From Candidatus Methanomethylophilaceae archaeon (GTDB taxonomy: Archaea; Thermoplasmatota; Thermoplasmata; Methanomassiliicoccales; Methanomethylophilaceae), in assembly GCA_050950505.1 (NCBI GenBank), contig JBMNHS010000001.1, positions 928,001 to 992,000 of the forward strand: a DNA stretch of 64,000 bases, given 5' to 3'. The stretch's first letter is position 1, and every line of letters begins with the position of its first letter. Positions 41,040-57,525 of this stretch are shown one piece after another. The translations under genes were made by a program, and so were the position numbers. Below the pieces are notes generated by a model. The model made no database searches and was not told where the DNA came from. It saw only the letters and a list, made by a program, of their open reading frames with translations.

Positions 41040-44000
41040 ATGGGGAACATCAAGGCATCTTTGTTTCTGGCTGTGGTGATACTGGTTGTTTTTACAGCAT
41101 TCGCATATGTTTTTACCGAAGTCGTTCCGGATGATTTTGATACCGAACAGGGTTTTTCGATATACTCTGATTCGCCGGTACCTTTGGGAAATCAGATTGA
41201 AGACATATTTGATTTTAAATACACCGATACTTCGGCAATTGTTTTAAAATACAAAGGACAGGATGAAATCGTATATGTTCCGAACATGATTGATGACAAA
41301 CCCGTTACCGGCATAGCCGACGGAGCGTTCATCAGCAACCCGACGGTAAAGGAGGTCCACCTGCCGGATTCCGTTACGGAGTTGGGGATATCGGTTTTTG
41401 AAAAATGCTCGTCTCTTGAAACGGTAACTTTGCCTTGCGGTATTAACAAGATAAGCGAAAAGACATTCTATGAATGTTCGTCCCTTAACAGTTTGGAGAT
41501 ACCGGATACCGTTCTTACCGTGGACAGACTTTCATTTTGCCGTTGTTCTTCTTTGACGCACATCACAATTCCTTACGGCGTGGTCGAATTAGGACAGGAT
41601 GCATTCAGCTATTCCGGTCTGATCACAATAGATTTGCCCGAAACGGTTTCAAAAATAGAAAAATACGCCTTTTATACCTGTTTGGATTTGAAAGAATTGA
41701 CCATCCCGGAAGGTGTCACCATGATAGGCGCAAAGACTTTCTGGCATTGCGAATCGATGGAACATATTTATCTCCCTGAAAGTCTCAAAACAATCGAAAT
41801 ATCAGCCTTCGTAAGCTGTTACTCTCTGAAAGAGCTCCATATTCCGTCAAACACCACGAATATCAGTATTTACGCCTTCGAATATTGCAATTCGCTGACG
41901 GAATTCACAGTGGGTGAAGGAAACAGCAAATACGAAAGCATCGACGGAGTTCTTTATGACAAGACCAGCAAAATGCTGTTCGCCTGCCCGGCTCTGAAGG
42001 AAGGTCACGTCACAATCGCTTACGGAACCAAGTCGATAAACGGTTTGGCATTCCACAATTGCATAAATTTGACGGATGTCACGATACCCGACACCGTCAC
42101 GAAGATAGGCGGCAGCGCGTTCAGTAGCTCTTCCCTTACATACATATGGATACCCAGCAGTGTCATCGATATAGTGGGAAGCACCTTCTCCGGTTGCCAT
42201 CAATTGACCGAGATAGAAGTCAGCAGGGACAATCCGGTTTACGGTTCGGTGGACGGTATACTGTACCGCGATAATATGGAAACACTGTTCATGGCTCCTC
42301 CCGGCAAAGGCGGGCATATAACAATACCGGACGGCGTGAAAACAATTTACGGCAACGCGTTCTATGTGAATTACGTCCTCACCGGAGTCACGTTCCCGGA
42401 TTCGCTGACCGCCATCAATTCAAGCGCTTTTTGGATGTGCCCGGCTTTGACGGATGTAATCATACCTGCAAACGTTACCGAAATAGGAAACTATGCCTTC
42501 AGTGAATGCAGTTCGTTGGAATACATAATTTTCCTCGGAAACGGCATGGAGCAAAGTTACGGCCCAATCCCTGTCGAAAAAACAATATACTATCTTGAAG
42601 GAAACACCGGTTTCGAATCTTGGAGAAACAGATACAAAATCCCCGTATCGCCTCCCGACAAAGTGACCGGCGTCTATTTTTACAACAATTCCTCCGAACT
42701 GAAATTCAGTTGGAATTATCCTGCCAACCATATCCGGGAGATAACCTCTTACACAATTTCGTACCGTGAAGCGGGTACGGACGATCCTTTCCGATATCTT
42801 GAAACTTACAGCAACATGGGCACCTCAATAGCGGGCCTGAAATCAGATACGGATTATGAACTGAGAATAGTTTCCGAAAACTTTGCAGGAACTTCCGAGA
42901 GCATTCTGTCCGGAAAAACCCTCAGGATTTATTCTGTGGATTTCAAAGCCAACGGAGGCAACGGAGTACCGCCGTCCGCAATATATGCCGACGAAGGCAC
43001 ATCTTTGACGCTTCCCGGTGCGGAAGATCTGCACATGACGGGACATTCCTTTATCGGTTGGTCATTATCGCCGTCAGGCCCTTCGCTGGAAAACAATATG
43101 ATTGTCGCGGATGACAACGTCACACTGTACGCGGTTTGGAAAACCGAAATGTACACTATTTATTTCGAGACCTCGGGCGGCGATCTCATCCCGCCGGTGC
43201 AGCAATATTACGGCACTTCCGTAGACGTTCCCGAAAATCCTTCCAGAGAAGGTCATACTTTTATCGACTGGGACGTCGCCGTTCCGGAAACCATGCCTGC
43301 CGAAAATTCCACTATATGCGCAATATGGGAGATCAACGGGTACAATATCGTGTGGATTGTGGATGATGTGAAACTCGATATCGATATTGATTACGGTTCA
43401 CGCATCAATATTCCGAGATTTAATGTCAAAGAAGGTCATGAATTCATCGGCTGGGACACAGAAATACCAGAAACCATGCCGGCCGAGGATTTGACGATAA
43501 AGGCAATCTGGTCCGTTAACACATACACATTGACCAGGATTGTCGACGGAGTTCAGTTTATCGATTATTATTCTTACGGATCTGAAATCGACACAATGGA
43601 AAATCCCGTTAAAGAAGGTCACACTTTCATCGGCTGGGACAAAAAAATACCGAAACATATGCCGGCAGAGAATCTCACAATAACCGCATCGTGGGAAATC
43701 AATCAATATGCAGTGATATTTATTCTTGGCAACGGTGAAAGCAATCTCGTAATATCCCGGGATTACGGCACAAATATACCCATTCCTGAAAATCCGAATC
43801 GGGAAGGTCATACATTCCTTGGTTGGAATATGCCGATACCGAGTACGATGCCGTCCGAAAATTTGGAAATATCGGCTGAGTGGAGCACTAACACATACCG
43901 TATTTTCTGGGTAATCGACGGTTTGGAAACCGAACAGGAATATTCATTCGGAACTTCCATATCTTCGGTTGAAAATCCGGTCAAAGAAGGTTATACCTTT

Positions 44001-45539
44001 GCAGGTTGGAATCCCGACGTACCGGAAACCATGCCCTCGGGAGATATCATTCTGCAAGCTCTTTGGAATTTGAATACATACAGAGTTTCATGGAATATCG
44101 GCGATACGGTGTTTGAGGTGAATGCCGAATACGGTTCACAGATACAGGTTCCAAAAATTATACAAAGAGAAGGTTGTGAGTTTATGGGATGGGATTCCCA
44201 GATTCCGGAAACCATGCCTGCTCACAATTTGGAAATAAGTGCATTGTGGCACACCTTCGAATATTCTGTAACTTGGATCGTCGATGATGCACGGATTGCG
44301 GAGACATACGAATTCGGAGACCGGATAATTCTTCCGGAACCTCCTGTCAAAGAAGGTTATTCCTTTATCGGCTGGGACGGTGATGTCCCGGGATCAATGC
44401 CTTCGAAAGATTTGGAAGTAACCGCATTGTGGAAAATCAATCAGTACACCGTTACTTTGATTTTAAACAACGGTGAAAATAACGTATCGATTGCTCGGGA
44501 CTATGGTGCAGAAATTCCAATTCCCGAAATCCCGGTCAAAGAAGGCCATGCCTTTGAAGGGTGGAGTGCGGAGATACCCGAAATTATGCCTGCCGAAGAC
44601 TTGACCGTATCGGCAACATGGTCCGTGAACAAGTATTCCGTCAGATGGATCGTTGACGGTATCGAATCCGTTGATGAATACGCATACGGTGAAGACATCC
44701 AAAAAAATCCCCCTGTGAAGAACGGGTACTGTTTCGATTGTTGGAGCGGAGACGTTCCCGCCGCAATGCCCTCTGAAAATCTTATGTTCGTCGCAATGTG
44801 GAATATTGAAAAATACATGCTGACTTTTGATTTGGGAAACAGCATCATGGAAATATCGGTGGATTTCGGAGCCGAAATTGATTTTGACGGAACGCCTGAA
44901 CGGCAGGGTCACGAATTCATAGGTTGGAGTTCCGAACTTCCCCTTGCGATGCCTGCGGAAAACATCACTGTTTCCGCCTTGTGGAATCCGAAGACGTATA
45001 CTGTTTACTGGGTGGTTGACGGCGAGGTTCTGGAATCTTCGGAAGTACAATACGGAAGTTTACCATCCAAACCCGTTGATGAGCCGGTCAAAGAATCCGA
45101 CGATATCCGGCATTATTCGTTCATCAGATGGTCTCCCGAACCCGATATCGTTGCATACGACACGGTGTATCATGCTGTGTTCAACGAAACGTCCCGCACG
45201 TATATTGTTGCCTATGATACAAACGGAGGTACCGGAGACACACCGCCCCCCGCGTCTCTGAATTACGGGACCGTGCTGCAACTCTCTCCCATCGACGGAT
45301 TGTACCGGGACGGCCATGTTCTCAAAGGTTGGAGCACAATGTCTTCCGGAAACGCGATGGAAAAATTGGAAGTAAAAGGCAACACGACTATTTACGCGGT
45401 TTGGGACACCGTTCCCAATCCTGAATCCGAAGATGAACCGATACCGTTGGTTATACCGGCGACCGTGGCAACTTCGGCAGTGGCTTTCTCAATGATCCTG
45501 ATATGGAGGAGAATGCGGCAATCGGGAAAGGTTGAGTGA
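41040..45539 (+). CDS. Large surface adhesin-like protein: BspA-type LRRs, FN3, about 13 Listeria/Bacteroides (InlB B) repeats, TM anchor
   Basis: IPxxVxxIxxxAFxxCxxL LRRs with DGVLY inserts; FN3 (SW..P, Y.I.Y, GLK.DT.Y); repeated EG.TF.GW..P.TMP..L...A.W units; C-terminal TM with basic tail. Confidence 0.92.
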   Translation: MGNIKASLFLAVVILVVFTAFAYVFTEVVPDDFDTEQGFSIYSDSPVPLGNQIEDIFDFKYTDTSAIVLKYKGQDEIVYVPNMIDDKPVTGIADGAFISNPTVKEVHLPDSVTELGISVFEKCSSLETVTLPCGINKISEKTFYECSSLNSLEIPDTVLTVDRLSFCRCSSLTHITIPYGVVELGQDAFSYSGLITIDLPETVSKIEKYAFYTCLDLKELTIPEGVTMIGAKTFWHCESMEHIYLPESLKTIEISAFVSCYSLKELHIPSNTTNISIYAFEYCNSLTEFTVGEGNSKYESIDGVLYDKTSKMLFACPALKEGHVTIAYGTKSINGLAFHNCINLTDVTIPDTVTKIGGSAFSSSSLTYIWIPSSVIDIVGSTFSGCHQLTEIEVSRDNPVYGSVDGILYRDNMETLFMAPPGKGGHITIPDGVKTIYGNAFYVNYVLTGVTFPDSLTAINSSAFWMCPALTDVIIPANVTEIGNYAFSECSSLEYIIFLGNGMEQSYGPIPVEKTIYYLEGNTGFESWRNRYKIPVSPPDKVTGVYFYNNSSELKFSWNYPANHIREITSYTISYREAGTDDPFRYLETYSNMGTSIAGLKSDTDYELRIVSENFAGTSESILSGKTLRIYSVDFKANGGNGVPPSAIYADEGTSLTLPGAEDLHMTGHSFIGWSLSPSGPSLENNMIVADDNVTLYAVWKTEMYTIYFETSGGDLIPPVQQYYGTSVDVPENPSREGHTFIDWDVAVPETMPAENSTICAIWEINGYNIVWIVDDVKLDIDIDYGSRINIPRFNVKEGHEFIGWDTEIPETMPAEDLTIKAIWSVNTYTLTRIVDGVQFIDYYSYGSEIDTMENPVKEGHTFIGWDKKIPKHMPAENLTITASWEINQYAVIFILGNGESNLVISRDYGTNIPIPENPNREGHTFLGWNMPIPSTMPSENLEISAEWSTNTYRIFWVIDGLETEQEYSFGTSISSVENPVKEGYTFAGWNPDVPETMPSGDIILQALWNLNTYRVSWNIGDTVFEVNAEYGSQIQVPKIIQREGCEFMGWDSQIPETMPAHNLEISALWHTFEYSVTWIVDDARIAETYEFGDRIILPEPPVKEGYSFIGWDGDVPGSMPSKDLEVTALWKINQYTVTLILNNGENNVSIARDYGAEIPIPEIPVKEGHAFEGWSAEIPEIMPAEDLTVSATWSVNKYSVRWIVDGIESVDEYAYGEDIQKNPPVKNGYCFDCWSGDVPAAMPSENLMFVAMWNIEKYMLTFDLGNSIMEISVDFGAEIDFDGTPERQGHEFIGWSSELPLAMPAENITVSALWNPKTYTVYWVVDGEVLESSEVQYGSLPSKPVDEPVKESDDIRHYSFIRWSPEPDIVAYDTVYHAVFNETSRTYIVAYDTNGGTGDTPPPASLNYGTVLQLSPIDGLYRDGHVLKGWSTMSSGNAMEKLEVKGNTTIYAVWDTVPNPESEDEPIPLVIPATVATSAVAFSMILIWRRMRQSGKVE

Positions 45540-45775
45540 TGCTTCTGAACAGATTTTTCAAAGTCAAGTGACATGTGTTTGTGAGGGTCACAAATAATAC
45601 AGATTGAAAAAAGATTCAGAACCGCGGTCCGCGGAGATATGCCCTGAATACGGTAAATCGTAAGTTTCCGATTCAGGGCGATTCTGAAACCTATCATCAA
45701 AAATGAGAATTGAACAATGGTTTTACAGAATTTGCTTAACAATGATTATTAACCCAAAACTGCTAAAATAAACAC

Positions 45776-47419
45776 ATGTCCGGCAGGATAAAAAGTCTGT
45801 TCGCAGGGTTTGCCGCAATCCTTTTGATAACGACCTTGGCAATCCTGATAGTCACTGTCGGCACGGGAACGGTTTACTCCGTTCAGGGCACGGAGCCGGA
45901 AAACGGCACCGTCGAAGGTTACGGGGAATACAAACCAGGTGCGTGGGTGGTATTGATTGCGATACCGGACGAAGGTTACGAGTTCGTGGAGTGGTACGAC
46001 GAATTGGAAAACCGATCCCTCGGCGGATATGACCGATATTCTTTGATTGTCAGAGGCGACGAAAAGATAACTGCAATTTTCAGATTGAAAGAATTCAATG
46101 TCAGAGTGAACACAACCGGTGAGGCTGAAATAACGGGGGCGGGAACGTATCATTCCGGCGACACGGTGACACTGTCCGCCACGCCGAAAGAAAACTACAC
46201 ATTTTCACACTGGGTGTACAAAGGGGACACCTTCGAAGAATCCGTATTCACATTTGTTGTCGAAGAGAATGCCGTGATCCGGTGTGTTCTCACGGGGGAT
46301 CCCTGCGATATAACGATTGTTCCCGGAAACCACATAGAGACGGCTCCAACTTCAGGGACGTATGAATACGGTTCCAAAATCGGATTGTACGCAACTGCGG
46401 AAGAAGGTTATGTCGTAGACATGTGGAAATCCGAGGAAAAGGTTCTGGGTTACGGATCCCGAATTACTTATGAGGTTCGCGGCGATGCGGAAATATACGT
46501 CTTCTCCGCGCTTTACCTGGATGCGGATTTCACAACGACCCAGACCGGGTACGGTGAACCGTATACGTTTACCTGCAAAAGTAATGATTCCGTAACGTAT
46601 TCCAATACATGGTCTGCCAAGGGAGAAGGTGTAAAAACTAAAACACTTTACGGGGAGTATTTGTATTCCATGAATTTGGATTGCACGTACGGCGAAGATT
46701 CCAAAGGCATATGGACTCTGGAAATTCGCTATCCGAACACTATTACGGTTGAGGATATGAGGTCGATTACAATCACTCACACCGTTCATTGCGAGGGTTA
46801 CGAAAAATCGGTTTCCAACACATATTCTGCATACGGATGGAAATATTCGAACGGCAATTATTCTCTGTTCTTGAAATTGAATCCTTCGGATTATGTCAGT
46901 GCAAAGAGTTTTTCGGACACTTGGAACAAAACATACAAGATGTATTTCAATCAAAGTAATCTATGGAACGGAATTGTGGTTCAAAACAGTACGATAAAAT
47001 CCGTTGCTGATTCTTTGGATACTATAACCACAGGAATGACCCGGACGCAGAAAGCGCAATGCATCCTGGATTTCGTAACGTATACCGTCAACTATACGAG
47101 CGATCAGAGCCTGTACGGTCAAAGCGAGTATTTCGCAACCGCTTACGGGACATTGTACCTGAGAAAAGGAGACTGCGAAGATTCATCGATTCTCTTTGTC
47201 TCCCTGGCCAGTTACTGTGGTTTTGAAACCTATCTCATTTCACCGCCGGGACATATGGCCGGAGGTGTCGTGCTTCCCGGCATGGGAGGCAATTTTAAAA
47301 CGAATCCGGGATTGTATTTCTGTGAAACGACTCTGAAAGGTGCAAAAGTAGGATACATTTCCCCGTCATACACAGGCGTATCATGTACGTTGGAGACTGT
47401 GTCCGTGTATCGGTGGTAA
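45776..47419 (+). CDS. Surface protein with divergent InlB B-repeats and C-terminal transglutaminase-like Cys protease domain
   Basis: Signal/TM, A.P.EGY.F..W repeats, TLYLRKGDCED (Cys), GHMA (His), CETT. Confidence 0.82.
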   Translation: MSGRIKSLFAGFAAILLITTLAILIVTVGTGTVYSVQGTEPENGTVEGYGEYKPGAWVVLIAIPDEGYEFVEWYDELENRSLGGYDRYSLIVRGDEKITAIFRLKEFNVRVNTTGEAEITGAGTYHSGDTVTLSATPKENYTFSHWVYKGDTFEESVFTFVVEENAVIRCVLTGDPCDITIVPGNHIETAPTSGTYEYGSKIGLYATAEEGYVVDMWKSEEKVLGYGSRITYEVRGDAEIYVFSALYLDADFTTTQTGYGEPYTFTCKSNDSVTYSNTWSAKGEGVKTKTLYGEYLYSMNLDCTYGEDSKGIWTLEIRYPNTITVEDMRSITITHTVHCEGYEKSVSNTYSAYGWKYSNGNYSLFLKLNPSDYVSAKSFSDTWNKTYKMYFNQSNLWNGIVVQNSTIKSVADSLDTITTGMTRTQKAQCILDFVTYTVNYTSDQSLYGQSEYFATAYGTLYLRKGDCEDSSILFVSLASYCGFETYLISPPGHMAGGVVLPGMGGNFKTNPGLYFCETTLKGAKVGYISPSYTGVSCTLETVSVYRW

Positions 47420-48675: not shown

Positions 48676-49941
48676 TTATTCTTTGCCGAATATTTCATCC
48701 AACAGATACATTGTGCCTGATATGCCGTAAATGGGACGCGGCAGAAATCCGATTTTTGCAAGGCTCGGATACCCTATGTCCACTCCTTTGTAACAACGGT
48801 CGGACAGTTCCAGCATCTCTGCCGTATGTCCGTCCGCGAATACAAAATCAATCTTTTCGGGCAGCGGATCCGAACGCCAGGCGTTCTCGGCACCTATGTC
48901 CCTGAGAAAACTTCGGATTTTTGCGGCGGTGTCTTCATCGGTGCCGGGATTGGGCGTCAGTGACGCGGGAGCCATTCCAAGATATCCGAACAGCCATTTT
49001 GTCAGCGGAAGAAGCACCGATCCGTCCGCCGTTGCGGCGAAATCGTTGCCTTTGACTTTGTTCGTGTACAGGGTGCCTTTTATACGTTTGAAGACCCGGA
49101 CTTTGCGGTCGTTGATGAGGTTTTTCACTCTGTCGGCATTTCTGCCGGTTTTCGAGGCGACGGTTTCAATCCATCCTTCGGTGGCATCGAATCCCACGGG
49201 GGAGCCTCCATCGAACCGTATCGAAGGTATTCCGTATTTTTCCTCGTAATATTCTGCGGTTCTTGCGCAGTATTCGTTGCTGACAATCACATTGTATTCC
49301 GCTGAAACGGATTTTTCTATGTCCTCGCGTCCGCAACCCGCCCCGGGGGACGATACGACTTCCAACCCCGTCATTTCCAACAGATTCTTCAAATCTTCAA
49401 ACGCACTTTCCCAATCGTTGCTGGTTATCGGAAGACCCAGTATATTCACTGTTCCCGGAATGGTATCTTTCTTTTTGGGATCCATCCATTGAATCATTCT
49501 CCGTACGGTATGATCGTATCCCGAGGAAAACGGTTCGGAAATCAAAGACTCTTCAACTGCCATGGCCTTATCGGAACATCCCGCGAGCTCAATGGCATCG
49601 GTTATGTTGTCTCCGATGAGCGCGGCTCCCGGTGATTTGATGAACACGTTGAAAACATCATCATCCGCGCACAGGATGGGAAGGCATTCCTCTATCTTGT
49701 CAATGGAACCGTGAATGTAATCGTCCTCGTCCATGTAGGTGCAAGGTATTCTCGGCTGGCCGAAGAAAAAAGGAAGGGAATATTTCTCGTAATCTCCCGG
49801 TCCGGCTTTTGAATAATATTTGGAAGCCGAGAAAGAATGGTATCCTCTGCAGCCGCCGGGACCATGGAGCACTGCCCTGCCGTCCCTGAAACTTTCCACG
49901 GCCATGATTGCTCCGGTGAAACCGTCGGGAAGTACCGTCAT
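48676..49941 (-). CDS. Nitrogenase component 1-like subunit (second chain)
   Basis: PDGFTGA, LHGPGGC, T.MDE.DYIHG, LIGD, VNILG, PVGFDAT; ATGA overlap with the upstream fusion gene. Confidence 0.85.
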   Translation of the reverse strand: MTVLPDGFTGAIMAVESFRDGRAVLHGPGGCRGYHSFSASKYYSKAGPGDYEKYSLPFFFGQPRIPCTYMDEDDYIHGSIDKIEECLPILCADDDVFNVFIKSPGAALIGDNITDAIELAGCSDKAMAVEESLISEPFSSGYDHTVRRMIQWMDPKKKDTIPGTVNILGLPITSNDWESAFEDLKNLLEMTGLEVVSSPGAGCGREDIEKSVSAEYNVIVSNEYCARTAEYYEEKYGIPSIRFDGGSPVGFDATEGWIETVASKTGRNADRVKNLINDRKVRVFKRIKGTLYTNKVKGNDFAATADGSVLLPLTKWLFGYLGMAPASLTPNPGTDEDTAAKIRSFLRDIGAENAWRSDPLPEKIDFVFADGHTAEMLELSDRCYKGVDIGYPSLAKIGFLPRPIYGISGTMYLLDEIFGKE

Positions 49942-52097
49942 TCCTCCAACCTCCATCCTTCCACCGCCGGGACCAGCAGCATATTCGCAAGTTTGCGTCC
50001 GAACTTCAAAACCCCGTCCAGTCCAACGTCGGGTCTGCTGTAACTCATTATTTTGGCATCAAGGGACGTCAGACCGCTGTCAGTTAGAATGAGGTCGGGT
50101 TTAAACTTGTCAACGTCCGACTTCAAATCCAGTATGTCGTAATCTTCGGCATAGGGAATTCCCAATCCGTCATATCTCGGATCGAGACCCTCTTTCCGTT
50201 CGTGTCTCGGCCCCATGCCTATTTTGACGATTTCCACATCCAAGTCCGACAGTATTTCCAAAAGCCAGAACATGTCCGGGGTGAATCTGTTCTCGATGAT
50301 GACGCGTTTCCCTTTCAGCTTTTTCTTCAGCCTTTCCACTTCAGAAAGATATTTTCTTTCCCCCTGTTTGCAAACTTCTTCGGCTTTGTTTTCTATGCCG
50401 AAAAGATTTCCTATCTTTTTATGGAATTCTTTGTAACTTCTGAGTCCGACGGGCAGCGTCTCTTTTTCGACCCGCAGACCGGTTTTGGACTCGAAGAGAC
50501 GGACTATGCTCTTCGATTCGGATTCATCGGAAGCGGCGAAGGTAAATTTCCCTTTCTTTATGTTCTTCATGGAATCCATGGATGTTTCATACATGAATCT
50601 GCAATTTATCCGTATTCCGAGTTCGGAGAACAAATCGGCGGTGCTTTTATCCGGAAGACGTCCCCGTCTGAAGAGATATCTTTCGGCCACGGTGTTTACC
50701 GTCATGTCCTCGGAAATCACGTCATTATCCACGATGTCGAGCATAGCCTCGGCGGATGCGATGTACCCTTCACCCATGTCCCCGGTAATGTTTCCGTCCG
50801 CTTCGATGATTCTGAAATAAAGTTCAGGGTATTCGTTGCTTACGGCGTTCACGACATCCATCGCATTGTCTCCGATTATTCCCGAAGCGCAGGTCGTCAC
50901 AATAAAGAAACTCTTATGTCCCTCCAGTATCAAATCCCGTATCTTCTGTTCAAGGGATCCCGCCCCTCCGAACACCGATATGGTGTCATCCATTTCGGTG
51001 GAGTGCACGTTTGAAGACCGGAAATCCGTGCCGTGTCCTCTCTTGATTTCGGCAATGACCTTCAAAGTGTACATTATATGGGCGCAGCTTCTGGGCCCGT
51101 GAACAATAATGACGGCATCGGTGACGGACATACATCCGTACACGGCCCCGACGGCGGCACAATAGTTGATTATCTTTTTCTTGGTGGTTGTTTTTTTCCC
51201 GGTTGTCGTTTTCATGCAGGCAAGACAGCCTTCCGGCAACAGATTCGGCATTCCGCGGTTTCCGAGGACGCGTTCCCCTTTGGCTATCCTGCCCATTTCT
51301 GCATCGTCAAGCGGATAAGAGCCCAGGAGTTCGGTTTCACCGTTTTTTATACTCAGTATGTGTGACGATATCTTCTCAAACTCTTTTGCGGAATCGGAAT
51401 CGGGATAAAGTTCCGACACGGTCTTTCCCGCAGATTCCGCCTCTGCGAAATATTCACTTCTGGGAATGCGGGCGACAATCGGCAATCCCACGGCTTCGGC
51501 GAACCTTTCCACCATGTCATATTCGTTCTCCATTCCTCTGTGGTTCAGTATTATACCGGCGACTCTCGGAGTCCCCTTGTCAAAATTTCTTATCCCTTTC
51601 AGTATGTTGTTGGCGGCGTAGACCGACATGAATTCCCCGGAAGTGACCAGATAGACGCCGTCCGCATATTCGTTTCTCAAAGGTACGGCGAACCCGCCGC
51701 AAACCACATCGCCGAGGACATCGTATATTTTTACATCTAAATCCAAACCCTCCACGCCCAGATTCTTAAGGGTTTCGAATGTGCTGAGTATTCCTCTTCC
51801 CGCGCAGCCTATGCCCGGTTCCGGTCCGCCGGCTTCCACGCACCGTATGCCCCTCACGCCGTTAAGCACTATGTCCTCAAGATGTCTGTCGTACGGCGGA
51901 GTCTTTCTCATATAGTCGAGGACAGTCGTCTGCTCGTTTCCGTCCAAAAGTAGCCGTGTGGAATCATGTTTCGGATCGCATCCGATTTGGAGTACTTTCT
52001 TTCCCATTCCTGCCAGTATATAGGATATGTTGGCGGACACCGTGGATTTGCCTATGCCGCCTTTGCCGTAAACGGCAATCTGAAGGGCTCCGTTCAT
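49938..52097 (-). CDS. NifH-like reductase fused to a nitrogenase component 1-like domain
   Basis: YGKGGIGKST, GCDPKHDST, GGPEPGIGCAGRG, DVVCGGFAVP; then CAAVGA, HGPRSC, VFGG, TTCASGIIGD. Confidence 0.92.
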   Translation of the reverse strand: MNGALQIAVYGKGGIGKSTVSANISYILAGMGKKVLQIGCDPKHDSTRLLLDGNEQTTVLDYMRKTPPYDRHLEDIVLNGVRGIRCVEAGGPEPGIGCAGRGILSTFETLKNLGVEGLDLDVKIYDVLGDVVCGGFAVPLRNEYADGVYLVTSGEFMSVYAANNILKGIRNFDKGTPRVAGIILNHRGMENEYDMVERFAEAVGLPIVARIPRSEYFAEAESAGKTVSELYPDSDSAKEFEKISSHILSIKNGETELLGSYPLDDAEMGRIAKGERVLGNRGMPNLLPEGCLACMKTTTGKKTTTKKKIINYCAAVGAVYGCMSVTDAVIIVHGPRSCAHIMYTLKVIAEIKRGHGTDFRSSNVHSTEMDDTISVFGGAGSLEQKIRDLILEGHKSFFIVTTCASGIIGDNAMDVVNAVSNEYPELYFRIIEADGNITGDMGEGYIASAEAMLDIVDNDVISEDMTVNTVAERYLFRRGRLPDKSTADLFSELGIRINCRFMYETSMDSMKNIKKGKFTFAASDESESKSIVRLFESKTGLRVEKETLPVGLRSYKEFHKKIGNLFGIENKAEEVCKQGERKYLSEVERLKKKLKGKRVIIENRFTPDMFWLLEILSDLDVEIVKIGMGPRHERKEGLDPRYDGLGIPYAEDYDILDLKSDVDKFKPDLILTDSGLTSLDAKIMSYSRPDVGLDGVLKFGRKLANMLLVPAVEGWRLEE

Positions 52098-52582
52098 ATG
52101 GTGGAATATACATCCAATTTAAATAAAAGGCTTGGAATTTTTAGGCTTGTAGGGGAGTATTGGGAGCATCAGTGTTTTATGCCAAGCAATTTAAAAATTT
52201 CTCTCTTTTCGGTCACGATGCACAGATTAATTTTCTCTTTGCAAATATGAAACATTCCGAGTGCTGTGACAAGCCGGGAGCCACGTGCATGTTTTATTTT
52301 CAAAAGACTTGGTTCGACAATCATTGCAGACGTATCAATATCTTCAAACATTACACAGACGGGCCTAAAATTGTTTTTAATCCGAACAGGAGTTTTTTCT
52401 GTTAACGATTCAACATACGGATTGTTCTTTCCTGTGTCGTCGATATTTTCGACCGGTGGGTGCCTGAACGAATATTATATTATTCTTTTTACGTTTTTTA
52501 TATTTGATATAAATACAGATGAACATTTATAGTTAGATGACCATAAATGGGTAAGGCAACGCCTTACAAATTTGGTGATGTT

Positions 52583-54781
52583 ATGAGGTTAAAATCTCTG
52601 TTGGCGGCATTGATTGCTGTAGCGATGATTTCCGTACCCTTTGCGGCAGTCGTCGGAGTACAGGATGTTTATGCCGATGATGGTGAAGACGCAGGTGTCA
52701 AAGTCGGAGATGCCTGGGGATTCAGCGCGACTTTGGATTCGTTTGATGATTTTGAAGAATTCGGAGAATCTTTGGAGGAGATACTCGGAGAATTCTTCGG
52801 TGAAGAGGGTGAAGAATTCTCACTTTTGGATTTTATCATGGATATCTTAAGTCCTGATGAATATGCCGATGAAGACGACGGCGAAGGAGAAGGTTCCGAT
52901 TTTGATGAACTTCTCAGTGAAGAGGATTTGGAAATCATTTTGGATATCTTTGAAAAGTTGGCTACACTTAAGTTCAATATCGTCATTGCAGGAATCATTG
53001 AAGTCACACAGGCTGACGAAAACGGATACACCGTGTCTGTCGATGCAGGCGTCAGCGCTGATGTTTCATTGAAAGTGGACATCAACAGTCTCGAAAAGAT
53101 GTATGAAGAGATAGCGGAAATGATTCCCGAAGAAGGCGAAGGAGACTACAGCGAAATCTGGGAGACGATTGAACACATTCTTGAAATGGCACCCGACTAC
53201 ATCGGAGACGGCAAACTGTTTGTCAAACTCGATCTCCTGCTCGCTTTGATGTTGTCCGGGACTGTCATGTATGATTCCGATTGGGAATTAAAGAACGCAG
53301 ACATTTCCACCGATCTTGTCGGTACGGTCGGACTTGAAACGAATGTGGATATAGTCGGAACAATCTTTGAATTTATATTCAATGAAGATGATTCCTCGTT
53401 ACCCACGTCCCTGCTCCAATATTTGGATGACGGAGAAAGGGATGTCTACAGCGTCACGGTCGGATTATCCTTCGATAATACCGTGTATACCGTCGGTGAT
53501 TCCGTTCTGGATACTGTCGTTATGGGCATAACTGTCGATGCGGAAGCACCGGTATCCTTGCTTGTTGCGCTTAAATTTATACTCGAGATTCCGAATGAAA
53601 TATACCGGACGGGATCGAATCTGCAATTTAGTTTGGCTGATGCAAATGTAAGTTATGAGTACGGTTATGATGAAGCAATTCCTTTGCTCTATATCGTCGA
53701 TGAAGCCATCTATCTAACAGTTATCAAAGCTGATGAGGCGGATGATGCTGACGGAGACAAGTCTGTACTTTTCCTGGAAGGACCGGATAAGACTGCCGTT
53801 CGCAACGATTTCAAGAAAGTCAAAAACACATACAACGGCATGGTTTCCAAGGTTGGTCCTTCCAATGTAACATTATATGGTCTGGAATATGACGAAGAAG
53901 AGGACGAATTCGAATTTGTCGTGTCGGAGAAAATTGAGGTTCCCTTTAACAAGAGGATGACGAATCTCCCGGTCCTGGATAATCTTGTTCTCGGAGAAGA
54001 AGATGAGTATGTTGAGTACAAGCATGTCGGATGGGGGTGCATCAATACGGAACCCGGAGACGTCGTGGAATACGACGACTACGAGGATATGACAATCTGG
54101 AATCCTGCCTGGAAAGTAAAGGGAGACCTAAAACTGTATCCGATATATGCATACGTATACGAAGATTTAGAAGATACGCTCGGTTACTTGAGTTCCATTT
54201 TCTACTTCGATCTTGTTTATGTCAAAGTAGATATCAACGAACTTGATGATGTCGGCTTGGATTTCGAATCTGGAGCACTTCTGTATATCGACGTGTACGA
54301 TGGAGACAAGTTCCTTTACACATGGAAGATAGGCAGTCCCAATGGAATATGGGGTGGAGAGATAACCAACTTCAGGATTGGAGTTTTGAATGAAGGAGAT
54401 CTTTTCAATGAAGCCAAGAAAGAACTTGACGGATCCGTTCTGTTCCTGAACTTCAGTTCATCGGGAACGACACCGTTTGGGACCACCGTGAGCTACAACG
54501 TTGAAGGAGTGTTCAGCGACGGCACGGAACTGTATGTGTATCTTGTGCTCGAAAACGAGGAAGGAAAATTCCTGGGATTGGAACCCATGGGTATTTACGT
54601 TGTTGACGGCAACACGGTTCTGTTCAATGTACCTCACTGTTCCGTATACGCATTGAGCGCAATACCCCAGTCCTCTTCATCCGATGGCGGGTTGTCCACG
54701 AGTGTATACGCAATAGTTGCCGTGGTCGCAATCCTTCTGGTTGCGGGTGTGGCGTACGTCATGTTCAGCAGGAGGGGCTGA
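52583..54781 (+). CDS. Acidic surface protein with signal peptide and C-terminal TM anchor (paralog A)
   Basis: GGTGA RBS, signal peptide, D/E-rich body, VPHCSVYA then TM helix ending SRRG. Confidence 0.85.
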   Translation: MRLKSLLAALIAVAMISVPFAAVVGVQDVYADDGEDAGVKVGDAWGFSATLDSFDDFEEFGESLEEILGEFFGEEGEEFSLLDFIMDILSPDEYADEDDGEGEGSDFDELLSEEDLEIILDIFEKLATLKFNIVIAGIIEVTQADENGYTVSVDAGVSADVSLKVDINSLEKMYEEIAEMIPEEGEGDYSEIWETIEHILEMAPDYIGDGKLFVKLDLLLALMLSGTVMYDSDWELKNADISTDLVGTVGLETNVDIVGTIFEFIFNEDDSSLPTSLLQYLDDGERDVYSVTVGLSFDNTVYTVGDSVLDTVVMGITVDAEAPVSLLVALKFILEIPNEIYRTGSNLQFSLADANVSYEYGYDEAIPLLYIVDEAIYLTVIKADEADDADGDKSVLFLEGPDKTAVRNDFKKVKNTYNGMVSKVGPSNVTLYGLEYDEEEDEFEFVVSEKIEVPFNKRMTNLPVLDNLVLGEEDEYVEYKHVGWGCINTEPGDVVEYDDYEDMTIWNPAWKVKGDLKLYPIYAYVYEDLEDTLGYLSSIFYFDLVYVKVDINELDDVGLDFESGALLYIDVYDGDKFLYTWKIGSPNGIWGGEITNFRIGVLNEGDLFNEAKKELDGSVLFLNFSSSGTTPFGTTVSYNVEGVFSDGTELYVYLVLENEEGKFLGLEPMGIYVVDGNTVLFNVPHCSVYALSAIPQSSSSDGGLSTSVYAIVAVVAILLVAGVAYVMFSRRG

Positions 54782-54794
54782 AATAAACTCTAAA

Positions 54795-54825
54795 ACCGGG
54801 GCAATTCCCCGGTAATTATTTTTTT
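54795..54825 (+). terminator. Hairpin plus T-run terminator
   Basis: ACCGGGG-CAATT-CCCCGGT then a T-rich tract. Confidence 0.7.
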
Positions 54826-55328
54826 ATTATGATGCTTTTGCGTCATAGAGCGGACGTTCGTACGCTATGAAATATGACCGTCACTGACGTATGCGTAAGA
54901 TTGTGACACGGTATTTTTGATTATTGGTATCGTCAATCACCCTGTGATAAAAATTTCCATTTTCGGTTTCATGTGTTATGGAATTTTCGTTGTCCGTGAC
55001 GGTGTAAAACGCAACGTTAATTCAAGCATCTCAAATCCCTGCATATCAATGACGAATGTTTCTTTTGAATCCTATCTTAAAATATCTGAATTATGCCTAA
55101 TTTAAAACGGTTATCTTATGATTATTTCATAAACGGTTCAACTTGGAATGATGCCGTCATACGCATGGACGCGATCGGTTTGCGTTGACACACATATTAT
55201 ATAGTATTGTTTTTTAATATTATTATATTGCGAAAAGAATATAAATTAGCATTTATAGTTAAATAGCGTTAACACAATAGGGTAATGCCTTACAAAATTT
55301 GGAATGTCTTATGAGGTTTGGTGATGTT

Positions 55329-57525
55329 ATGAGGTTAAAATCTCTGTTGGCGGCATTGATTGCTGTAGCGATGATTTCCGTACCCTTTGCGGCAGTCGTC
55401 GGAGTACAGGATGTTTATGCCGATGAAAGTGAAGAGTTAGACGTCAAAGTCGGAGATGCCTGGGGATTCAGCGCGACTTTGAATTCGTTTGATGATTTTG
55501 AAGAATTCGGAGAATCTTTGGAGGATATACTCGGTGAATTATTCGGCGAAGGTTTCACTGTTACAGATCTTCTGGAAATGATTCTCGGTTCCGGTGACGA
55601 TGATGACGATGACGAAGACGATTTTGATTTCAGCAGTCTTTTCGATATCGGCGAAGATGACTTGAAAATTCTTTTGGAAATCTTTAATGCGTTGGAAATA
55701 ATTGATTTCAATATCGTCATCGCAGGAATCATTGAAGTCATACAGGCTGACGAAACTGGATACGCAATTGCTGTCGATGCAGGCGTCAGTGCTGAGGTTT
55801 CATTGAACATCGAAGAGAATCTTGTCGATATACTCGGTACCGTAGAGGATTTGGCTCCTCACGAATACGATGATGACAGTATCTGGAATAAAATCATTTC
55901 ACTTCTTGGGGAAGACAGTTTCTTCGGAACGGGCGATTTGCTTGTCGATCTCAATCTCTCGCTCGCTTTGATGTTATCCGGAATAATCAAGCTCGATCCC
56001 GATTGGAATCTAAAGCACGTAGAATTTTCTGTTGACATCGTCGGCACGGCTAGCCTTGAAACCAATATAGACCTGTACGGAACATTGGTTGGAATAATTG
56101 ACGCCTTTAATAACCTTGGAGATCCCGATTACACGATGCCCACTGTTGAATATTTGGATGACGGTACAGACGTTTTCAGTTTCGAGATTAGATACTCCAC
56201 CGATACTGCCACATATTTTGGTAAAGATATCATAAACAGATACTAATGTCATGGGCTTCACCATTGATGTGACTGCACCGGAGGCAATACTTTCGATTTT
56301 ATCCCTTATTACGGGCAAATTGTGTGATGAGGGAGAAACATCCCTGGAATTCAGTACCGCAAACGTGGAAACCCAGTACGGTGTCCAAGATTCTTCGGAT
56401 AGTTCCGAACTCGAATTTATTCGCTCTATAGTGAGCCTCGGTAATGAGTCCGGTCTTTTCCTGGAAGACACGGGAAAGACTGCCGTTCGCAACGATTTCA
56501 GGAAAGTCGAAGACGCATATAGTGGTCTGGTTTCCGAGTTCGGCCCCTGCAAAGTGACCTTTTGTGACATTGCGTATGATGAAGATACCCCGGATGAACC
56601 GGATTTCGTTGTGTTGAGTGAAATTGATGTTCCCTTTAATGGAAAAATTACAGGTTTTCCCGTTTTAGATAATGTCACTTATGACGAGGGAGCCACAATG
56701 TACAAGCATGTCGGATGGGGGTATGTTCCAGTTGAATACAGGGATTGTGATTACGGAGAGTATTATAATTTCATGATAAACTGGAATCCTGCCTGGAAAG
56801 TAAAGGGAGATGTGAATCTGTACCCCATATTCGCAAAGATACACACAAGTCTGGCTGATGCGCTCGATGAGTTAGGGAATGATTATGAGCCGTTCCATTA
56901 TGCCAAGGTTGACATCAGCAATTTGACAGATGATGGCGAATATCTCTTTGATGCATACGGAACTCTGTTTGTTGAAGTGTACGATGGCAACAAGTACCTT
57001 TACACCTGGATTATATCGGGCGACGAATCGGACGAGGACGATGGATTGATAACCAACTTCGGAATCAACACTCTGGAAGAAGGGAGTCTTTTCAATGACG
57101 CCATGGGCGAATTTGACGGATCCGTTCTGTTTCTGAACTTCAGTTCGTCAGGACCGACGCCTTCGGGAACTGCCGTGAGCTACAACGTCGAAGGTGTGTT
57201 TGAAGACGGTATGGAAGTGTATGTGTATCTGGTGCTTGAAGACGATGACGGTGCCTTCCTTGGATTGAAACTTATGGGTGTTTACGTCGTCGACGGCAAC
57301 GCGGTTCTGTTTAACGTGCCTCATTGTTCCGTATACGCACTGAACGCAATACCTCAGCCCTCTGACCCGTCCAACGACGGTCCGTCGACCGATGACAATC
57401 CGCCCTCCGGTGAAGGTTCATCATCCGATGGCGGTTTGTCCACGAACGTATACATGATAGTCGCTGTGGCCGCAATCCTTCTGGTTGCGGGTGTGGCGTA
57501 CGTCATGTTCAGCAGGAGGGGCTGA
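55329..57525 (+). pseudogene. Acidic surface protein paralog B, frameshifted near 56235
   Basis: ORFs 55329-56246 and 56251-57525 match the N- and C-halves of paralog A in different frames; 4 extra nt (AACA) relative to paralog A. Confidence 0.8.

Follow-up and report, generated by a model that had tools for sequence, protein, structure and literature searches.

The window analysed here, a stretch of 64,000 nucleotides (nt) from the genome of a Candidatus Methanomethylophilaceae archaeon (assembly GCA_050950505.1, contig JBMNHS010000001.1, positions 928,001 to 992,000), carries on its minus strand a pair of overlapping genes resembling those of nitrogenase. The upstream gene, here called H-D, joins a NifH-type Fe-protein domain to a NifD/E-type catalytic domain within a single open reading frame (ORF), and the downstream gene, here called K, specifies a second catalytic-type chain. 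Their features are as follows.

52118..52128, minus strand: candidate archaeal TATA box TTTTATTTAAA, read from sequence, 21-31 nt upstream of the H-D ATG
49938..52097, minus strand: fused H-D gene, an ORF of 719 amino acids (aa) with a NifH-type ATPase/Fe-protein domain, a linker and a NifD/E-type domain
51333..52097, minus strand: H domain, residues 1-255, with Walker A GKGGIGKS and [4Fe-4S] ligands C98 and C133
51168..51332, minus strand: linker, approximately residues 256-310, a conserved helix (PLxDxxMxxIAxG) followed by a variable stretch that includes CLAC and Lys/Thr-rich low complexity
49941..51167, minus strand: D domain, residues 311-719, alpha/NifE-type, with C313, C338 and C403 and with cofactor-ligand positions lacking Cys or His
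48676..49956, minus strand: K gene, a NifK/N/BchB-type partner with one invariant cluster Cys (HGPGGC)

An earlier note, made from the letters of the window, had described an intact Fe-protein joined through a CLAC- and Lys/Thr-containing linker to a component 1 domain with three cluster cysteines; its coordinates proved exact and its motifs are conserved. Pfam places Fer4_NifH at residues 6-251 of the fused ORF (304.6 bits) and Oxidored_nitro at residues 313-707 (165.8 bits), and finds Oxidored_nitro alone in K (130.8 bits). Both H-domain cysteines, C98 and C133, are invariant in 39 of 39 fused relatives; in the D domain, C338 (HGPRSC), C403 (TTC) and H333 are likewise present in all 39, with C313 (CAAVG) in 37. 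NifH chains are the top solved-structure matches of the H domain (E ~1e-72), and CfbC is its highest curated-model match (320.5 bits). AlphaFold2 models reach predicted local distance difference test (pLDDT) scores of 87.6 for the D domain, whose modelled start falls below 50, and 92.8 for K. When compared with the PDB by Foldseek, the D model falls among nitrogenase alpha chains (query TM-score, TMq, ~0.72) and the K model among beta-type chains (TMq 0.72-0.79), matches which do not separate the subfamilies. The sequence preceding the H-D ATG may be a TATA box.

The linker begins with a conserved PLxDxQ(L/M)xxLAxGR helix, is variable thereafter, and measures 46-69 aa across the 39 relatives. 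A CxxC motif occurs within it in 13 of these, five of five in the window copy's clade and eight in one other clade, and nowhere else. The window's own CLAC lies at 51210-51221; two tethers would supply four cysteines, a possible metal or cluster site.

The two genes meet at GGAATGACG, an ATGA overlap already recognized by the earlier note, in which the K start (ATG, 49941-49939) is interlaced with the H-D stop (TGA, 49940-49938). Read from this ATG, K is 421 aa long; an in-frame ATG 15 nt upstream, at 49956, would yield 426 aa and a 19-nt overlap, and is an equally possible start. Two candidate arbiters were discarded: a GGAGG lies only 1 nt from the ATG of the ATGA and so cannot choose between the starts, while the "ME.GG" N-terminus of orthologous K chains simply results from the conserved EGWR with which H-D ends.

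The fusion is not an artefact. An assembly error, which had been named as one way in which the initial description might fail, is refuted by the presence of both domains in 120 of the 120 homologues listed (the best 120 of 2943 at E <= 0.001, among 8000 scored), and by a K-type gene following the fused gene in 41 of 42 loci, a set comprising 40 fetched Methanomassiliicoccales loci and the genome's own two. The named sources of some listed homologues are Methanomassiliicoccaceae, Methanoplasma, Methanogranum, Methanomethylophilaceae and Methanomassiliicoccus. Some portion of the protein is matched in 86 of 121 genomes of the order, and in approximately 45 the best match has E <= 1e-120, which requires both halves; up to five paralogues are found per genome. 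Only one of the five other genomes of the window's genus has a fused copy, of a different paralogue type, and the gene is therefore accessory. Some related H-D genes contain one in-frame TAG or TGA (G058:C1:1373461-1375590, G104:C1:1531438-1533399, G102:C28 and G079:C12). In this pyrrolysine-using order, an in-frame TAG may be read through; alternatively, these genes may be pseudogenes.

A contig scan outside the order, which is a sample and not a census, extends this distribution. Among the matches listed, a fused H-D with K occurs in a Peptococcaceae metagenome-assembled genome (MAG), Clostridium tetanomorphum DSM 4474 and Oscillospiraceae, as well as in a Eubacterium MAG, a Bathyarchaeia MAG and a Methanosarcina. 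The 80 metagenome loci found by way of a bacterial K comprise 50 with a single H-D ORF, two with H and D apart, and 28 that are undecidable owing to contig ends or otherwise. In the two loci with separate H and D ORFs before K (L194 and L227), the gene may be genuinely split, or the assembly may contain a frameshift.

Fourteen of the 120 listed homologues, of 1079-1106 aa, take an H-H-D form in which two complete NifH domains precede D. In these proteins (P0045, P0049, P0052 and 11 more) the first NifH domain has an insertion of ~35 aa. A Myxococcota MAG likewise contains an H-H-D gene of 1085 aa (L071, 2627-5884, plus strand), and no K-type ORF was found beside the gene at that locus. Because the H-H-D forms carry two NifH domains, the tether would appear to hold a whole Fe-protein dimer at the catalytic core. 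Nitrogenase is known to deliver electrons to one side at a time, and the single-H forms, which would have one H2 dimer per (HD)2K2, would fit such delivery; alternatively, they may need a free partner such as the unfused NifH encoded on contig 2 of this genome, described below.

Both window proteins were compared with the NCBIfam equivalog models at their curated cut-offs. No curated cut-off was reached by either H-D or K. Scores against the nitrogenase models were 307.9 for nifH (cut-off 394.35), 68.3 for nifD (653.55) and 17.7 for nifK (427.3), the D part scoring 68-117 bits over the nifD/alpha models, whose cut-offs span 486-654. The window proteins fell similarly short of nifE (77 bits, cut-off 505.1), nifN (24.9, cut-off 326.8), the BchN-type (33.9, cut-off 324) and BchB-type (49.1, cut-off 509) models, and the D part scored 27.2 bits against the CfbD model TIGR03282 (268.4). 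When family profiles were compared with solved structures, D best matched the NifE part of 9i0g (191 bits), followed by VnfD (141.5), NifE 3pdi_A (140.3) and MarD (132), and K matched MarK (94.7), BchB (90.6) and NifN (34.5). As a single sequence, the window K finds its best solved match in MarK (43 bits). For comparison, the D chain of the Mar-like reference locus L086 scores 306 bits to 9fmg_A. The genome of that locus, Ruminiclostridium hungatei (G122), has 28 Oxidored_nitro matches, including Nif, Vnf/Anf and several nitrogenase-like sets.

Searched with a profile, 1.84 billion representatives yielded 3355 proteins at E <= 0.001; of these, 1779 reached <= 1e-10 and 343 reached <= 1e-30. 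In a tree of the top hits, one clade holds 113 of 136 rows (support 98), and nearly every full-length member there is fused. Outside it lie unfused chains of ~430 aa and NifE; among these outsiders, curated cut-offs were passed by none but a true NifEN. A 76-row reference tree was built from labelled NifD, VnfD, NifE, NifK, AnfK, NifN, ChlN, ChlB and CfbD sequences along with Mar-like chains, by a quick IQ-TREE search (LG+G4) which does not settle the order of the deep clades. The fused-family D chains (17 rows) and K chains (16 rows) form clades with support of 100 and 97, respectively, by the Shimodaira-Hasegawa-like approximate likelihood ratio test (SH-aLRT). Both are separate from NifD/E, CfbD, ChlN/B, NifK/N and the Mar-like chains, and the window D and K are nested within them. 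The sister of the K clade (97) is an unfused N-like chain of Phascolarctobacterium faecium.

Judged by its sequence, the H-D and K pair is a nitrogenase-like reductase of a distinct family that is neither nitrogenase, CfbCD, DPOR nor Mar. The earlier note's separation of it from nitrogenase and CfbCD is thus upheld, while its label of "Group IV" is a loose one: the family falls outside CfbD (IV-B) and the Mar-like clade, in a tree without labelled IV-A, IV-D/E/F, Group VI or COR sequences.

The residues available to bind a metal cluster set this family apart further. Ligand positions are given in A. vinelandii and BchB residue numbers; the cofactor ligands of the nitrogenase alpha chain are Cys275 and His442 in A. 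vinelandii numbering. In an alignment with labelled NifK, NifN and ChlB, Asp6 of K stands at NifK Cys69/70, Pro104 at NifK Cys152/153, and Cys31 at NifK Cys94/95, NifN Cys44 and the Asp of ChlB HAPLGDD, the DPOR ligand position. The PDG, HGPGGC and KSP that had been read from the second chain are confirmed to occupy the P-cluster Cys positions of NifK. In the portion available of Dos Santos et al. (2012), the ligand residues are given as aC62/88/154, bC95/bC44 and the DPOR Asp (PMC3464626). The Cys of HG..GC is invariant in 41 of 41 K chains. At the PDG position, 32 chains have Asp and seven have Glu (39 of 41); at the third, 33 have Pro and eight have Leu. A further cysteine of K, Cys67 (IPCTY), is conserved in 31 of 41 chains and aligns with a Cys of Mar-like K chains, not with NifK, NifN or ChlB.

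Three cysteines in D and one in K reproduce the 3+1 pattern of NifEN. The invariant Cys of HGPGGC is expected to be the fourth cluster ligand, and the ligand set as a whole would, we infer, suit a single [4Fe-4S] cluster per D/K pair. The suggestion that the Asp of PDG might be the fourth ligand is accordingly not needed, the invariant K Cys being the residue at the NifN Cys44/DPOR Asp position; located at the modelled interface, the conserved Asp/Glu possibly has some other role. The cofactor-Cys column, retained in NifD, VnfD, NifE and Mar-like D, is Ser in the window protein and N, S, G, Q, E or D in the 39 relatives, and the cofactor-His column of NifD/VnfD is unconserved in the fused family. 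The alignment indicates that D/K is without ligands for the iron-molybdenum cofactor (FeMo-co) or an L-type cluster. C499 (INCRF) was considered as a cofactor Cys and rejected, as it lies ~25 residues ahead of the relevant column.

A model of the D and K complex including a 4Fe-4S cluster scored 0.77, the best control scoring 0.00; this level is attained by 58 of 80 solved complexes and by two of 110 mismatched pairs. At least 86% of contacts were in common between runs, and partner pLDDT was at least 88. The modelled interface comprises D residues 10-14, 35-42 and 103-105 and K residues 1-9, 28-31 and 103-105, and all six candidate ligand positions fall within it. This result points to a likeness to solved NifDK-type complexes and may stem from the predictor's memory of them.

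The remainder of the genome (1.33 Mb, two contigs, 99.6% complete) contains four NifH-type and five component-1-type matches in all. The earlier note had reported no nifB/E/N or cfbA/B/E nearby. None of these was found within the window; beyond it, the claim does not extend to the genome, which has a nifB ~200 kb from the locus (445.5 bits, cut-off 343.65), three further NifX-type ORFs and, on contig 2, a cfb cluster. The cluster, ordered cfbC-cfbA-cfbE-cfbD-cfbB, also answers whether a separate cfbCD exists: CfbA (220.6, cut-off 120), CfbE (286.1, cut-off 250) and CfbD (394.4, cut-off 268.4) all exceed their cut-offs, with the NifH-type gene of the cluster scoring 316, under 402. A second fused system lies at C2:126714-134373, where the gene order is a free NifH, a binding protein, FecCD, an ABC ATPase, a fused H-D (714 aa) and a K (422 aa). 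This free NifH, of 286 aa and of the fused type, retains the linker's first helix. Its identity is 62% to the window H domain (including that helix), 54% to the neighbouring H domain of the fused protein and 50% to the CfbC-type protein.

Inferring the substrate of such a reductase depends on the company its genes keep. Neighbouring genes in the 42 loci (815 kb) were clustered and labelled from one Pfam-scanned representative per cluster, with the following occurrences.

FecCD: 25 of 42 loci
ABC ATPase: 22 of 42 loci
Peripla_BP_2: 9 of 42 loci
Binding-protein-like cluster without family assignment: 14 of 42 loci
Any importer part: 27 of 42 loci
CbiZ: 7 of 42 loci
Full-length CobN: 7 of 42 loci
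CobN C-terminal fragment: 7 of 42 loci
ChlD-like: 7 of 42 loci
ChlI-like: 5 of 42 loci
CbiZ or any chelatase part (CobN, ChlI, ChlD): 15 of 42 loci

As a background, the genome itself has 12 FecCD matches at ~9 places, from which a random 20-kb stretch would hold one ~14% of the time, our own rough estimate for comparison with the 25 of 42 observed. Importer contexts are spread over nearly all deep clades of the family tree. In three loci (L033, L036 and L041) a single strand carries periplasmic binding protein (PBP)-FecCD-ABC-CbiZ-ChlI-ChlD-HD-K, with CobN adjoining, and the Bathyarchaeia locus reads PBP-FecCD-ABC-HD-K. Importer or chelatase parts adjoin three of the four relatives that stand closest to the window copy (53-59% identity), but neither L029 nor the window copy itself.

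Cobalamin riboswitches offer an additional line of evidence among the bacteria. An Rfam scan of seven bacterial loci gave one match, a cobalamin riboswitch (54.7 bits, gathering score 31.5) that stands 166 nt upstream of the fused gene, on the same strand, in the Peptococcaceae MAG. Whole H-D ORFs preceded by 400 nt or more of sequence were present in 45 metagenome loci, which merging at 90% identity reduced to 34; in these, Rfam identified six cobalamin riboswitches in four loci and nothing else. One (L254) is sense-upstream of H-D with a FecCD fragment between, those of L180 and L200 are divergent at 110-212 nt from the H-D start, L200 also featuring an energy-coupling factor (ECF) transporter and a DUF4430 gene, and L188 has two that are not clearly tied to a target gene.

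Twelve Bacillota NifH-centred loci were taken as controls, of which two proved to be relatives of the family, leaving ten true controls. In both of these relatives a cobalamin riboswitch lies 117-129 nt ahead of unfused NifH-type genes: in Phascolarctobacterium faecium (L110, 9696-9872, plus strand, 102.4 bits) it heads an unfused NifH/E-like/N-like operon, and in Clostridium argentinense (L123, 9665-9854, plus strand, 111.4 bits) a NifH set. The latter is of the kind described for C. botulinum in the available part of the 2012 paper (PMC3464626). No cobalamin riboswitch was found by Rfam in the ten control loci, which are Mar-like, Nif or hydrogenase-maturase-linked. Direct sense placement is qualitative evidence that some members are switched by B12.

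Since the operons of relatives hold BtuFCD-type importers, CbiZ, CobN/ChlI/ChlD and cobalamin riboswitches, we propose that the enzyme is an ATP-driven reductase of a corrinoid or tetrapyrrole, linked to B12, a reading whose prospects we regard as evenly balanced. Two tethered H domains would dimerise around their own [4Fe-4S] cluster and bind ATP, and the H2 dimer would dock over the D/K cluster, allowing single low-potential electrons to pass to a substrate held at the D/K interface. This substrate would be a corrinoid or close tetrapyrrole relative within a route that supplies or salvages vitamin B12. At its most specific, our guess is a reduction of the cobalt, from Co(II) to Co(I), or of the ring, in an imported or newly metallated corrinoid. 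The aerobic pathway employs CobNST followed by cob(II)yrinic acid diamide reductase, and the substrates of CbiZ are adenosylated corrinoids, which need Co(I) first. The guess is suggested because the gene order of chelatase then reductase mirrors that pathway, and because CbiZ substrates require Co(I); the step would be an anaerobic counterpart of the one after the CobN-type chelatase. We advance only tentatively the fuller version of this proposal, that of a tethered ATP-dependent corrinoid reductase of anaerobic B12 supply which would do the work that a flavoprotein does after CobN in the aerobic route, would be the first natural covalently tethered Fe protein, and whose single-H forms would be forced into one-side-at-a-time delivery.

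Several observations weigh against a role in B12 supply. The putative substrate is assigned from neighbouring genes only, and no importer, CbiZ or chelatase accompanies the window copy. FecCD importers are common in the genome (the 12 matches noted above) and also carry haem and siderophores, and related genomes are non-independent samples. In the six fused loci outside Methanomassiliicoccales, a FecCD importer is present in one and CbiZ or CobN in none, and CbiZ or CobN is likewise absent from five of five bacterial loci, such that a general B12 gene neighbourhood is not confirmed for bacteria. A riboswitch occurs in five of the 38 bacterial-type fused loci with upstream sequence versus none of the ten controls, a difference which on such small numbers is not significant, and only two of the five (L069 and L254) are clearly sense-upstream. 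The stoichiometry is a further concern, as one H per D allows only one H2 dimer per (HD)2K2.

The neighbours of the window copy are FKBP26, family-less proteins, DUF5685, a radical-SAM/SPASM gene, MetA and a pyridoxal phosphate (PLP) enzyme. To one side (41040-47419) are a BspA-type leucine-rich-repeat protein (1499 aa, with Listeria-Bacteroides repeats) and a relative (547 aa) that has a transglutaminase core; to the other (52547-57525) are ORFs of 744, 315 and 424 aa without Pfam family and with 42% GC. These three are absent from relative L029, where DUF5685 abuts the operon directly, and the region flanking the operon looks like an insertion. At the C. tetanomorphum locus, the neighbours are MarR, two exporter-type ABC genes and a DAO oxidoreductase.

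Other functions must be weighed on the same evidence. The commonest neighbours, Peripla_BP_2/FecCD/ABC importers, are unspecific for corrinoids, and with Isochorismatase-family genes in five of the 42 loci they would also suit a reductase that strips an imported chelate, be it haem, a siderophore or similar, of its iron or other metal, rather than one serving B12 supply; we consider this unlikely, given that CbiZ, CobN/ChlI/ChlD and cobalamin riboswitches point to corrinoids in particular. The NifE-like profile of D and its 3+1 cysteines, together with the nifB and three more NifX-type ORFs of the genome, recall instead a NifEN-like scaffold or maturase, which would build or carry a complex iron-sulfur cluster of NifB origin, for instance on behalf of the enzymes of methanogenesis. 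Such a role appears improbable: the cofactor Cys common to NifE, NifD, VnfD and Mar-like D is missing from the family, K scores only 34.5 bits with NifN, the locus is not near nifB, four of five other congeneric genomes have no fused copy, and the family also occurs in bacteria that are not methanogens.

The earlier note had offered a tetrapyrrole or an organosulfur compound as substrate, and it is the former that the neighbours and riboswitches favour. Cleavage of an organosulfur compound for sulfur acquisition, after the manner of Mar or Isr, would accord with MarK as the best solved-structure match of K, and with the MetA (HTS) and PLP-dependent cysteine-synthase-type genes 9-11 kb away, which are syntenic in one relative (L029). 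Sulfur genes often adjoin Group IV systems, according to the part available of a 2026 paper on Mar (PMC13753814). We nonetheless assign this function a slender chance, as the family lies outside the Mar-like clade, has no Mar-like cofactor Cys, does not conserve the cofactor-His position, and in three of the four nearest relatives adjoins importers or chelatase parts, not sulfur genes. The least probable of the functions weighed here is that of a methanogen-specific reductase acting on a nickel tetrapyrrole, whether a second one of the F430 type or another. While CfbC as the top curated match of H (320.5 bits), the CobN-type chelatase neighbours and the methanogen host would agree with it, the family extends to Clostridium, Peptococcaceae, Oscillospiraceae, Myxococcota and Bathyarchaeia, has a patchy distribution within a single genus of methanogens, and is accompanied by riboswitches that respond to cobalamin.

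Nitrogenase-like enzymes with known roles are, to our knowledge, few, and serve chlorophyll, F430, organosulfur cleavage and isethionate. Against this background the fused family is large, numbering 343 representative clusters at E <= 1e-30; it is widespread among the methanogens and Clostridia of the gut, and is without an assigned reaction. Corrinoid competition shapes communities of gut anaerobes; the B12 link, if true, would add a new ATP-driven step to their corrinoid salvage. The natural tether and its tandem NifH relatives also constitute a system in which to ask how many Fe-protein dockings a nitrogenase-type core needs; nitrogenase engineering, which seeks fused designs, could take them as a template.

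The novelty implied by the earlier note was overstated, as the fusion has been in print since 2012. Across that paper (Dos Santos et al. 2012) and two later ones, the available portions place the fused architecture in Archaea, with Methanomassiliicoccales named, Firmicutes and Deltaproteobacteria (PMC3464626, PMC4153887, PMC11237513). The 2012 paper marks it as "data not shown" and removes the fused sequences from its tree (PMC3464626), a table in Borrel et al. (2014) lists "fused nifH/nifE" as a landmark (PMC4153887), and a 2024 survey of archaeal fusions records a NifH-NifD/E fusion in Methanomassiliicoccales (PMC11237513). In the portions available, each of the three papers devotes one line to it, with no function, ligand analysis or context. 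The words fused, fusion and Methanomassiliicocc are absent from a 2026 Chem Rev review of nitrogen-fixation-like (NFL) systems, PMC8351635 contains nothing on the fused family, and the available part of the 2026 Mar paper describes tests of only the IV-A, C, D, E and F bacterial sets (PMC13753814). Among open-access papers and bioRxiv, we found none that characterises the fused family or ties it to B12, and none that links B12 riboswitches to nitrogenase-like genes.

The family is perhaps best situated by comparison with the systems it resembles. Nitrogenase has six P-cluster cysteines, three per chain, whereas D here has three and K one, with Asp and Pro at the other two positions. By profile, no solved structure is closer to the D family than NifEN, which shares the interface pattern of three cysteines and one; however, the cofactor Cys present in three NifE references is absent here, K is far from NifN, and the Fe protein is fused. 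DPOR (BchL/ChlL with BchNB/ChlNB) and COR likewise have an ATP-driven Fe protein; their one inter-subunit [4Fe-4S] cluster with 3+1 ligands and their tetrapyrrole substrate are features predicted for the fused family, and the K profile has BchB as its second-best solved match. Unlike the fused family, ChlB supplies an Asp as fourth ligand where K has Cys; D is moreover nearer to NifE/NifD than to ChlN, and the clades are separate.

CfbCD, similarly, is a nitrogenase-like tetrapyrrole reductase of methanogens, and CfbC gives the best curated match of the H domain. CfbD, however, is a single chain with two cysteines, in contrast to the two different chains with 3+1 cysteines described here, and this genome has its own cfb cluster. 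MarBHDK (9fmg, 9d9u) shares a three-part H/D/K layout and, in MarK, provides the best solved match of K. Mar-like D chains retain the cofactor Cys that the fused family lacks, and the fused family lies outside their clade; in the part available of the Mar paper, a Cys and a His are required as cofactor ligands of MarD and are conserved in nearly all Group IV sequences (PMC13753814). The closest correspondence is with the uncharacterised family of a fused NifH-NifE-like protein and a NifN-like partner, all traits of which are found in the window pair: one H-D ORF, followed by a K/N gene with a single cluster Cys.

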